This document shows, in pieces, positions 27,662 through 64,000 of a DNA stretch of 64,000 bases. The first letter of the stretch is position 1, and each line of letters begins with the position of its first letter. The position numbers were made by a program, and so were the translations under genes. Under the pieces are notes generated by a model. It did not search any database. It saw nothing but the letters and a program-made list of their open reading frames with translations, and had not been told where the DNA came from. The stretch comes from Candidatus Micrarchaeota archaeon (GTDB lineage Archaea; B1Sed10-29; JAJRYS01). The stretch spans positions 9,819 to 73,818 of the forward strand of contig CAZBZN010000001.1 in assembly GCA_964496415.1 (NCBI GenBank). The letters run 5' to 3'.

Positions 27662-27701
27662 CAGGCGATTGAGAACCACGTTAGTGGTTCGATGTCGCCT
27701 G
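27662..27701. repeat. HP element copy A (extended hairpin, L18e leader)
   Basis: caggcga-ttgagaaccacgttagtggttcgatg-tcgcctg. Outer 7-bp stem, internal loop, inner 7-bp stem gaaccac/gtggttc, GTTA loop. The outer stem differs from the other copies by compensatory changes. Confidence 0.6.
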
Positions 27702-27723
27702 CCCGCAAGCCGTATGCGGCTCT

Positions 27724-27762
27724 AGGGGATTGAGAACCACGTTAGTGGTTCGAACATCCCCT
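27724..27762. repeat. HP element copy B
   Basis: aggggattgagaaccacgttagtggttcgaacatcccct. Identical to the copies at 30277 and 63719. Confidence 0.6.
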
Positions 27763-27785
27763 GTCCGTAAACCGCACGCGGTTTA

Positions 27786-27923
27786 TGCAGGGGACGAGAT
27801 TTGAACTCGCGTGGGCACTAAGCCACAGGGCCCTCAACCCTGCCCGTTTTCCGGGAGGCCCCGCCTCTTATTACTTTTATTAACAGGAGGCAGGGGCCAC
27901 CGTCCAGGCTCCGGCACCCCTGC
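27786..27923 (-). tRNA. tRNA-Leu(GAG) with ~51-nt intron in the D-loop
   Basis: Minus strand. Acceptor GCAGGGG/CCCCTGC with A73. Anticodon arm CAGGG-TTGAGGG-CCCTG. 15-nt variable arm. T-arm GCGAG-TTCAAAT-CTCGT. It is collinear with the intron-less Leu(TAA) at 63802, apart from a GC-rich insertion between GCCTGGA and AAAACGG. Confidence 0.7.
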
Positions 27924-30091: not shown

Positions 30092-30226
30092 TCATTCACC
30101 AGAATTTTTTATTTCCCTGTAGGTCACAGCCTTAGCGGCTCGCCAGGATTTGGTTTTTTATAACAAGTGTTATGATTTGTGAACTCTTTTGTTTATAAAC
30201 CTTATGGAAACAGCCGCACCACTGGG

Positions 30227-30275
30227 TTGAGGTCCGTAGGACCGAAGTCCTGTAAATGCAGGCTTTTTGAAGCCT
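30227..30275. repeat. E element (inverted copy), a hairpin-rich module in the S13 leader
   Basis: Reverse complement of 63638-63689, with a compensatory change gcaggctt/aagcctgc versus gcaagctt/aagcttgc. Confidence 0.5.
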
Positions 30276-30276
30276 T

Positions 30277-30315
30277 AGGGGATTGAGAACCACGTTAGTG
30301 GTTCGAACATCCCCT
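30277..30315. repeat. HP element copy C
   Basis: aggggattgagaaccacgttagtggttcgaacatcccct, 3' of the tRNA at 30340-30507. Confidence 0.6.
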
Positions 30316-30339
30316 GTCCGTAAACCGCACGCGGTTTAA

Positions 30340-30507
30340 CGCGGCGGGGGAGATTCGAACTCCCGTGCCCCGAAGGGCACCAGCTCTCCAGGCTCACCTC
30401 ACTTTGTTTAAGTTCACTTTTTAAGCAAAGTGAACTGGCGCAATACCATTGCACCCACAAGGGTGCAAACCAAATGGCTTGCCATTTGTGGTCTATGCGA
30501 CCGCCGC
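30340..30507 (-). tRNA. intron-containing pre-tRNA, most likely tRNA-Ser(GGA) with two introns (D-loop and anticodon stem)
   Basis: 168 nt, GC-rich. Acceptor GCGGCGG/CCGCCGC with G73. T-arm GGGAG-TTCGAAT-CTCCC. A class II variable arm TGCCC-TTCG-GGGCA. Joining ...GCGCCAG to CCTGGAGAGCTGG gives the stem CCAGC/GCTGG around the loop CTGGAGA. A D-stem GCA/TGC is separated by about 50 nt of hairpins. Confidence 0.45.
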
Positions 30508-63511: not shown

Positions 63512-63639
63512 CGCCCCAGCCGGGATTTGAACCCGGGTCTCGGCCTCGACAGGGCCGAATCCTAGACCAATCTTCCACCTTTCTCAAGTTTTCTTTGGTG
63601 CAGCTTTCTTCTTAAGAAAGGTGCCTAGACTACCGGGGC
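63512..63639 (-). tRNA. tRNA-Asp(GTC) with ~55-nt AT-rich intron in the D-arm
   Basis: Minus strand. Acceptor GCCCCGG/CTGGGGC with G73. Anticodon arm CGGCC-CTGTCGA-GGCCG. T-arm CCGGG-TTCAAAT-CCCGG. The D region is interrupted by gcacctttcttaagaagaaagctgcaccaaagaaaacttgagaaaggtggaagattg, flanked by GTCTAG direct repeats. Confidence 0.65.
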
Positions 63640-63689
63640 AAGCTTCAAAAAGCTTGCATTTACAGGACTTCGGTCCTAACGGACCTCAA
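63638..63689. repeat. E element (direct copy), a hairpin-rich module at the tRNA-Asp 5' flank
   Basis: gcaagcttcaaaaagcttgc plus aggacttcggtcct, with an alternative pairing ggtcctaacggacc. It is the reverse complement of 30227-30275. Confidence 0.5.
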
Positions 63690-63718
63690 TCCAGTATCCG
63701 TGAGCCGTATGAGGCTCT

Positions 63719-63757
63719 AGGGGATTGAGAACCACGTTAGTGGTTCGAACATCCCCT
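63719..63757. repeat. HP element copy D
   Basis: aggggattgagaaccacgttagtggttcgaacatcccct, 3' of tRNA-Leu(TAA) after two GC hairpins. Confidence 0.6.
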
Positions 63758-63801
63758 GTCTGCCAGCTGCACGCAGCTGTCCGCAAGCCGCGCGCGGCTT
63801 A

Positions 63802-63946: not shown

Positions 63947-64000
63947 TCCCGCCGGGGAGATTCGAACTCCCGATCCCCCGGTGACAGCACCCTTTTGCTG
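63947..64000 (-). tRNA. partial tRNA-like 3' portion truncated by window edge
   Basis: Minus strand ...GGGAG-TTCGAAT-CTCCC-CGGCGGG-A. The 5' part lies beyond 64000, so identity is unresolved. Confidence 0.35.

Follow-up and report, generated by a model that had tools for sequence, protein, structure and literature searches.

Non-canonical tRNA introns, among them D-loop introns in relaxed splicing motifs, are already documented in archaea, Micrarchaeota-like lineages being rich in them, and the gene described here adds one to the known kind. [quoted passage not shown] 2011, PMC3241643). In Methanopyrus kandleri, pre-tRNA-Glu(UUC) carries a D-loop intron at 20b/21 within a relaxed HBh' motif where the 5' site alone lies in a proper bulge, and full excision is obtained only with a broad-specificity EndA; according to the same work, EndAs that bear a loop are common in DPANN archaea, as are disrupted tRNA genes that have escaped identification (PMC5829648). 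The relaxed HBh' bulge-helix motif has been published (PMC4090602, PMC3239211).

The closest named lineage to the host of our gene, by the RpoB'' matches listed, is Candidatus Micrarchaeum acidiphilum ARMAN-2. According to Fujishima et al. (2011, PMC3239211), this archaeon possesses an epsilon2 EndA of broad specificity that acts on relaxed motifs, and disruption affects 56% of its tRNA genes; the non-canonical examples that these authors name in the text consulted lie in the T-loop, at 53/54 and 59/60, and none of them is a D-loop intron at 15/16 like the one studied here. Disruption of tRNA-Asp(GUC) itself is also known, from A. pernix and Thermosphaera aggregans, where it is late and patchy among close relatives (Chan et al. 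2011, PMC3218864). In these species the gene is split at the canonical 37/38 position and trans-spliced, whereas the present one would hold a single cis intron.

In this study we analyse a stretch of 64,000 nucleotides, hereafter the window, at one end of which lies what is most probably a functional, syntenic tRNA-Asp(GUC) gene with one D-loop intron of the archaeal endonuclease type at 15/16, the splicing, the enzymes and the 3' cut being predicted. It shares the D-loop location with the A. pernix intron and with that of M. kandleri, to whose relaxed HBh' motif its predicted fold bears a likeness. It differs from the A. pernix case by an HBh'-like motif with a 3x2 loop, by a DPANN host, by its tRNA, which is Asp, and by splicing that is predicted. 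The intron leaves the current view of archaeal tRNA splicing unchanged, and the new points are modest: a recurrent 15/16 site with a sequence rule, a 32-nt duplication inside the intron of a relative, and a window intron that is out of register. A full-text search of the literature retrieved no paper naming an archaeal position 15/16, in a search whose matching the slash form may have escaped, and we make no claim of novelty for the position itself.

The tRNA-Asp gene, its neighbours and its host

We imposed the cloverleaf structure on 14 archaeal tRNA-Asp genes that lack introns and built a covariance model, R1, from them. In a default search all 75 positions of the model align to window 63512-63639 (minus strand), with 75.2 bits and an E value of 4e-15. 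The alignment covers both strands of the D-stem (GUCU/GGAU) as well as the acceptor stem and the anticodon and T arms, and contains one insertion, located in the D-loop, with a local length of 61 nt. The covariance check suggested by an earlier note, made from the letters of the window, thus returns the gene at full length with a single D-loop insertion. With filters off and in local mode, R1 recovers exon 2 alone (51.6 bits). The parts of the gene, whose D-loop is interrupted between nucleotides 15 and 16 by an insert of about 55 nt, are as follows.

63512-63639, minus strand: tRNA-Asp(GUC) gene
63625-63639, minus strand: exon 1, tRNA positions 1-15, GCCCCGG UA GUCU AG (acceptor 5' strand, U8, A9, D-stem 5' strand, A14 and G15), from the sequence and aligned by R1 to model positions 1-15
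63627-63630, minus strand: D-stem 5' strand GUCU (positions 10-13), predicted to double as the 5' strand of helix H in the precursor
63624-63626, minus strand: 5' splice-site bulge A14 G15 / G16, unpaired in the minimum-free-energy fold
63570-63624, minus strand: predicted intron, 55 nt, 40% GC, GCACCUUUCUUAAGAAGAAAGCUGCACCAAAGAAAACUUGAGAAAGGUGGAAGAU, placed by homology, the R1 insertion and spacing
63611-63623, minus strand: 5' arm of the intron hairpin (helix h'), CACCUUUCUUAAG, from the fold
63576-63588, minus strand: 3' arm of the intron hairpin (helix h'), CUUGAGAAAGGUG, from the fold
63570-63573, minus strand: intronic AGAU, a mimic of the D-stem 3' strand, predicted to pair with GUCU as helix H
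63512-63569, minus strand: exon 2, tRNA positions 16-73, UGGUCUA GGAU U CGGCC CUGUCGA GGCCG AGAC CCGGG UUCAAAU CCCGG CUGGGGC G, from the sequence and the full-length R1 match
63559-63562, minus strand: D-stem 3' strand GGAU (positions 22-25), the D-stem partner in R1, identical in orthologs
63548-63550, minus strand: anticodon GUC, from the sequence

Read along the minus strand from 63639 to 63512, the precursor consists of exon 1 ending in GUCU AG, the intron gcaccuuucuuaagaagaaagcugcaccaaagaaaacuugagaaagguggaagau, and exon 2 beginning with UGGUCUA GGAU; CCA is not encoded in exon 2. The acceptor stem (GCCCCGG/CTGGGGC, with the discriminator G at 63512), the anticodon arm (CGGCC-CTGTCGA-GGCCG) and the T arm (CCGGG-TTCAAAT-CCCGG) are all present on this strand, in the canonical form in which the earlier note had read them. 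The AT-rich insert with its own hairpin, also claimed there, is borne out: GC content is 0.40 in the intron against 0.67 in the exons, the intron value being near that of the genome (about 0.35), the hairpin CACCUUUCUUAAG/CUUGAGAAAGGUG comprises 13 bp, and the intron alone folds at z = -5.1 relative to shuffles. The insert had been located between position 9 and the anticodon stem; the D-arm assignment holds and is refined to D-loop 15/16.

In-silico removal of 63570-63624 yields a 73-nt product that ARAGORN names tRNA-Asp(gtc). This product is identical to the intronless tRNA-Asp of locus L085 at 70 of 73 positions and to that of L096 at 69 of 73, and the D-arm GUCU-AGUGGUCUA-GGAU is the same in all three. 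The two G-U pairs of the D-stem GUCU/GGAU, on which the rebuilt D-stem had been said to rely, are indeed there; they occur in every relative examined, and thus give no sign of decay. The R1 score, the Asp call by ARAGORN and the identity to L085 together indicate that the joined exons give a complete canonical tRNA. On this sequence evidence the locus is a real tRNA-Asp(GUC) gene with a non-canonical D-arm intron of about 55 nt, as first proposed from the letters and now backed by the R1 match, the in-silico splicing and the orthologs, and this intron is predicted to be of the archaeal protein-spliced type.

The gene at 63512-63639 escapes both default ARAGORN and the Rfam tRNA model; under the latter, the intronless tRNA-Asp of L085 reaches 53.9 bits. 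The window gene has the only Asp-type anticodon arm in the 64-kb window, and it would fill the place of a tRNA-Asp that automatic annotation would report as missing from this DPANN genome. Its recovery bears on completeness estimates and on claims of 'missing' tRNAs in ultrasmall archaea.

The RNA polymerase operon lies directly downstream, with rpoH starting about 65 nt after tRNA-Asp, followed by split rpoB'' and rpoB', rpoA' and rpoA''. Among the matches listed, the best named homologs of RpoB'' come from Micrarchaeota and Diapherotrites MAGs, at 55-70% identity. Judged by these homologs, the host is a low-GC (about 35%) DPANN archaeon related to Micrarchaeota/Diapherotrites. An RpoB'' scan of genome contigs gave mostly distant archaea among the matches listed, and the loci L004-L006 alone were useful. 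A tRNA cluster (Thr/Pro/Tyr/Asp/Lys) upstream of rpoH is kept across archaea, as the Methanobacteriales loci L034, L038 and L060 exemplify, and this indicates that the window gene is the ancestral, syntenic tRNA-Asp.

Locus L001 equals the window sequence over their overlap and reaches past the window end, where the order of the cluster can be read: tRNA-Thr(UGU) with two introns (D-loop and 37/38), a 103-aa ORF, tRNA-Tyr(GUA), tRNA-Leu(UAA), a structured repeat region and tRNA-Asp. The 3' part of tRNA-Tyr(GUA) occupies window 63947-64000 (minus strand), runs off the window end and is continued in L001:974-1087; it carries an intron of 41-42 nt at the canonical position, whose central helix has one U-U mismatch. 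An ORF of 103-104 aa is conserved within the tRNA cluster, where tRNA-Thr lies on one side of it and either tRNA-Tyr or tRNA-Pro on the other, at L001:659-970 (just outside the window), L004:2583-2896, L084:2897-3211 and L085:2676-2990. It has no Pfam match, and in the source genome tRNA-Tyr starts 3 nt past its stop codon.

Predicted precursor fold and splice junction

In the most stable fold of the precursor, GUCU pairs with the intronic AGAU (precursor positions 67-70) with a probability of 0.87-0.99. In this minimum-free-energy fold A14-G15-G16 are unpaired between helix H and the 13-bp helix h'; the 5' bulge AGG faces two unpaired bases, GA, and forms with them a 3x2 internal loop, unlike the four sister introns described below, and no second bulge is seen. 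Enumeration of all junction pairs revealed no strict hBHBh' motif (two 3-nt bulges, a 4-bp helix and outer helices) at the junctions that rebuild the tRNA; all hits fell at junctions from which no tRNA results. Folding for a BHB motif, which had been recommended as a check, thus fails to give the strict motif and gives instead the AGG bulge between H and h', opposite two unpaired bases.

From this fold a splicing route can be proposed. In the precursor, GUCU would pair with the intronic AGAU instead of GGAU and so form helix H, while the body of the intron would fold into the 13-bp hairpin h'. A14-G15-G16, bulged between the two helices, would constitute the relaxed HBh' version of the bulge-helix-bulge. 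EndA would cut after G15 and then in the unpaired stretch 3' of helix H, an RtcB-type RNA ligase would join the exons, and GUCU would re-pair with GGAU to give the mature D-arm with the D-loop AGUGGUCUA. An EndA-like ORF was not found in the 64-kb window by a motif scan, by phmmer with an approximate query or by a Pfam check. Neither a C box (RUGAUGA) nor a D box (CUGA) is present in the Asp intron, and a guide RNA of the kind found in archaeal tRNA-Trp introns is thus not indicated. As for a group I or group II intron, whose catalytic core spans hundreds of nucleotides, the insert measures just 55 nt, and Rfam gives no match at the gathering threshold or at E<=10.

On the accepted view archaeal EndA uses the 4-bp central helix as a ruler, and the usual rule places the cut 2 nt 3' of helix H. 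Applied to the favoured fold, this rule leads to a cut at 63568/63567 and to a mature D-loop AGGUCUA without the G18-G19 pair; a cut two nucleotides past H therefore does not leave the correct exon 2 in the window Asp intron. Homology and conserved spacing lead to a 3' cut at 63570/63569, with the D-loop AGUGGUCUA and the junction AG/UGG, at which ...GUCUAG would be joined to UGGUCUAGGAU. The spacing is the same as in the four sister introns, that is, 1 nt from the 5' cut to h' and 6 nt from h' to UGG, these six nucleotides being GAAGAU in the window intron versus AGAYAA in the conforming layout. The AGAU mimic sits 2 nt further 3' than in the four conforming introns, and a helix H in the positional register would have 2 of 4 pairs only.

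The predicted 5' cut after G15 (63625/63624) is firmly placed. The 3' cut is uncertain by 1-3 nt (down to 63568), because the pairing helix H is out of register. The earlier note had ascribed an ambiguous junction to GTCTAG on both sides of the insert; the ambiguity stands at that scale, but its cause is the register of helix H, and orthologs point to AG/UGG. A junction made between the two GTCTAG copies would cost the tRNA its U16 and G18.

Another conformer, of 'hBH' type, was considered, in which intronic ACC/UUUC pairs with GAAG(AUU)GGU and a closed 3-nt bulge holds AU/U precisely where homology sets the junction. Being about 13 kcal/mol less stable than the favoured fold (-40.9 versus -53.8 kcal/mol), this conformer is not retained as the main route. 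If the cut at AG/UGG is accurate, the EndA of this DPANN lineage might measure the 3' cut from h' or from the tRNA body and not from the 4-bp central helix, a notion that we regard as doubtful.

Introns between D-loop nucleotides 15 and 16

Five genes have an intron after A14-G15: the window tRNA-Asp, the window tRNA-Ser(GGA), the tRNA-Thr of the same genome (L001:485-624), the L004 tRNA-Thr and the L084 tRNA-Asp. All but the window tRNA-Asp share one layout, which reads D-stem 5' strand, A14 G15 / N, h'...h', an H 4-mer, and AA / U16 G18 G19. Their helices are the following.

L084 tRNA-Asp: H GUCU/AGAC, h' of 7 bp
L004 tRNA-Thr: H GCAC/GUGC, h' of 7 bp
window tRNA-Ser: H GCAU/GUGC, h' of 6 bp
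same-genome tRNA-Thr: H GCAC/GUGA (3 of 4 pairs), h' of 2 bp

Three of the four pairs between the intronic 4-mer and the D-stem show covariation, AGAC going with GUCU and GUGC with GCAC or GCAU, which is the signature of a required pairing. In these four introns the 3' cut falls exactly 2 nt 3' of helix H, and their geometry agrees with that of canonical anticodon introns in the source genome (exon H strand, 3-nt bulge, cut after the second base). The 3' site of these four introns has no closing outer helix, which makes the motif a relaxed HBh'. The insertion site recurs in orthologs and paralogs and the intron sequence diverges. Taken from these alignments and folds, position 15/16 is a recurrent intron site in the Micrarchaeota-related clade. 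The simple rule that its introns share, a D-stem mimic followed by AA/UGG, could be used in gene finders; a loose regular-expression scan of the collected loci for further 15/16 introns gave mostly noise.

The tRNA-Ser(GGA) gene (window 30340-30507, minus strand) is missed by ARAGORN and Rfam, and contains two non-canonical introns. Its D-loop intron at 15/16, of 44 nt, has a perfect HBh' (AG/A CCACAA...UUGUGG GUGC AA/UGGUA); the other, some 41 nt long, interrupts the top of the anticodon loop near position 31/32. This gene fits the other non-canonical intron that the earlier note had mentioned in the window, and is probably the one meant.

Among relatives, tRNA-Asp is intronless in L005, L085, L086, L088, L089, L095, L096 and L097. 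L004 and L006 have a single T-loop intron after UUCAAA, and L084, whose RpoB'' is 70% identical, has a 64-nt intron at the same D-loop site together with an anticodon-loop intron. The geometry of the L084 D-loop intron is perfect, with H GUCU/AGAC, the bulge AG/U, an h' of 7 bp and then AA/UGG. Comparison with related genes, as the note had advised, therefore gives a same-site intron in the L084 tRNA-Asp, intronless orthologs that match the spliced product, and intact exons in the window. The patchy state of tRNA-Asp among close relatives (D-loop intron, T-loop intron, two introns or none) is a compact body of data on how introns are gained and lost. A metagenome pattern scan for close relatives returned the same species only (L087), and none that could inform on covariation within the window Asp intron.

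As a separate observation, the 64-nt intron of L084 (L084:3378-3441) consists of a 32-nt unit duplicated in tandem (UGCUUGUC...GCAGACAA), and either copy makes a complete HBh' intron by itself. This suggests that introns of the 15/16 type can grow via duplication.

Several other readings of the window locus have to be weighed. With introns allowed (-i), ARAGORN miscalls it as tRNA-Pro(tgg), the insert being forced into the anticodon loop as a 41-nt intron. Apart from this output, a tRNA-Pro(UGG) needs a 3-bp D-stem and takes the true anticodon arm for a long variable arm, and the same-locus orthologs are tRNA-Asp; since the spliced product is called Asp and R1 matches at full length with 75 bits, we consider this reading refuted and give it practically no weight. 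An assembly chimera or sequencing artefact, for which nothing speaks beyond the odd structure, is equally far-fetched: the gene and its intron are identical in four independent assemblies (L001, L002, L003 and L087; one from ENA, two from Logan and one from JGI, of different samples), and the intron is thus not an assembly artefact. It is improbable, to a lesser degree, that the locus is a tRNA-Asp pseudogene broken by a small mobile element with a GTCTAG target duplication. Consistent with such an event are the GTCTAG on both sides of the insert, the inverted insert ends, the helix H out of register, and the short hairpin repeats and partial tRNA-gene duplications that are common near tRNA genes in this lineage. 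However, GTCTAG also occurs twice in intronless orthologs (GTCT-AGTGGTCTA-GGAT; L085, L089, L095 and L096 read GTCTAGTGGTCTAGGAT), and the second copy does not abut the insert. The pair is thus intrinsic to the tRNA and is no target-site duplication or insertion footprint; the direct repeats reported by the earlier note exist on both sides, but not as a flanking duplication. Furthermore, BLAST against the window and the fetched loci finds no second copy of the Asp intron and no similarity to other introns or repeats, the exons are undecayed by their identity to L085, the same site holds spliceable-looking introns in the L084 tRNA-Asp, in tRNA-Thr and in tRNA-Ser, and the only Asp anticodon arm of the window stands at the ancestral locus.

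The remaining reading accepts splicing but lets EndA measure from the favoured helix H, so that the cut falls at 63568/63567 or 63569/63568 and the D-loop becomes AGGUCUA or AGGGUCUA; in a variant of it, splicing is inefficient or heterogeneous. The high pairing probability of GUCU/AGAU, the cut exactly 2 nt 3' of helix H in the four conforming introns, and the fact that ARAGORN still accepts the shorter products as tRNA-Asp all argue for it. Nevertheless we hold it to be unlikely, since every ortholog has an AGUGG(U/C)(C)UA D-loop with G18-G19 and a 7-nt loop loses the G18-G19 pair, and since h' and UGG are separated by 6 nt exactly as they are in the other four introns, which favours the homology junction. 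The preferred reading remains a functional tRNA-Asp(GUC) gene whose intron would be removed at AG/UGG.

Repeats near tRNA genes

A hairpin module of about 45 nt, ACAGGGGAUGUUCGAACCACUAACGUGGUUCUCAAUCCCCUAGAG, occurs at window 63702-63759, 27708-27765, 27667-27700 and 30276-30318, always on the minus strand. It trails three tRNAs with long variable arms, Leu(UAA), Leu(GAG) and Ser(GGA), with a GC hairpin, AACCGCGUGCGGUUU, ahead of every copy. The copy at 27667-27700 is a tandem variant with compensatory stem changes (GGCGA/UCGCC). The module has no Rfam match, and may serve as a terminator or processing signal or represent a small mobile repeat. In L004 and L084 a similar hairpin, then CCCUAGAAAU, follows tRNA-Asp. 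The tRNA-Leu(GAG) gene itself (window 27786-27867, minus strand) is found by ARAGORN; when the whole window is scanned with Rfam, it stays below the gathering score of the tRNA model.

A second module of about 54 nt, CTGGATTGAGGTCCGTTAGGACCGAAGTCCTGTAAATGCAAGCTTTTTGAAGCT, is present at window 63641-63694 (minus strand) and 30221-30273 (plus strand). It adjoins the 5' side of tRNA-Asp, its last hairpin overlapping G1-C2 of the tRNA, and recurs inverted after tRNA-Ser. Region 63640-63800 as a whole folds at z = -6.2. L087 has two SNPs in the CTGGATTGAGGTCCGTTAGGACCGAAGTCCTGTAAATGCAAGCTTTTTGAAGCT region, one of which turns a G-U pair into A-U.

In L004, L084 and L085, GCTGGGGCG recurs without change 90-290 nt downstream of the complete tRNA-Asp gene, just before the rpoH promoter (L004:3636-3650, L084:3646-3656 and L085:3659-3668). 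This 9-mer corresponds to the 3' acceptor strand and discriminator of tRNA-Asp; it is conserved in the downstream copy, where the T-stem part has decayed. The tRNA-Met of L004 (L004:2056-2140) likewise has its own 3' end copied after it, over 22 nt. Integration or recombination at tRNA 3' ends may have left such copies as footprints (cf. PMC3293823), or they may be a functional element. Finally, in L088:1-190 a duplicate of the promoter region and of the initial 18 nt of tRNA-Tyr stands about 150 nt upstream of the full gene; the duplicated start is followed by a CCCCTTTCTTTTTTCAAAAAAAGAAAGGGG hairpin, and the full tRNA-Tyr has a T-loop intron.
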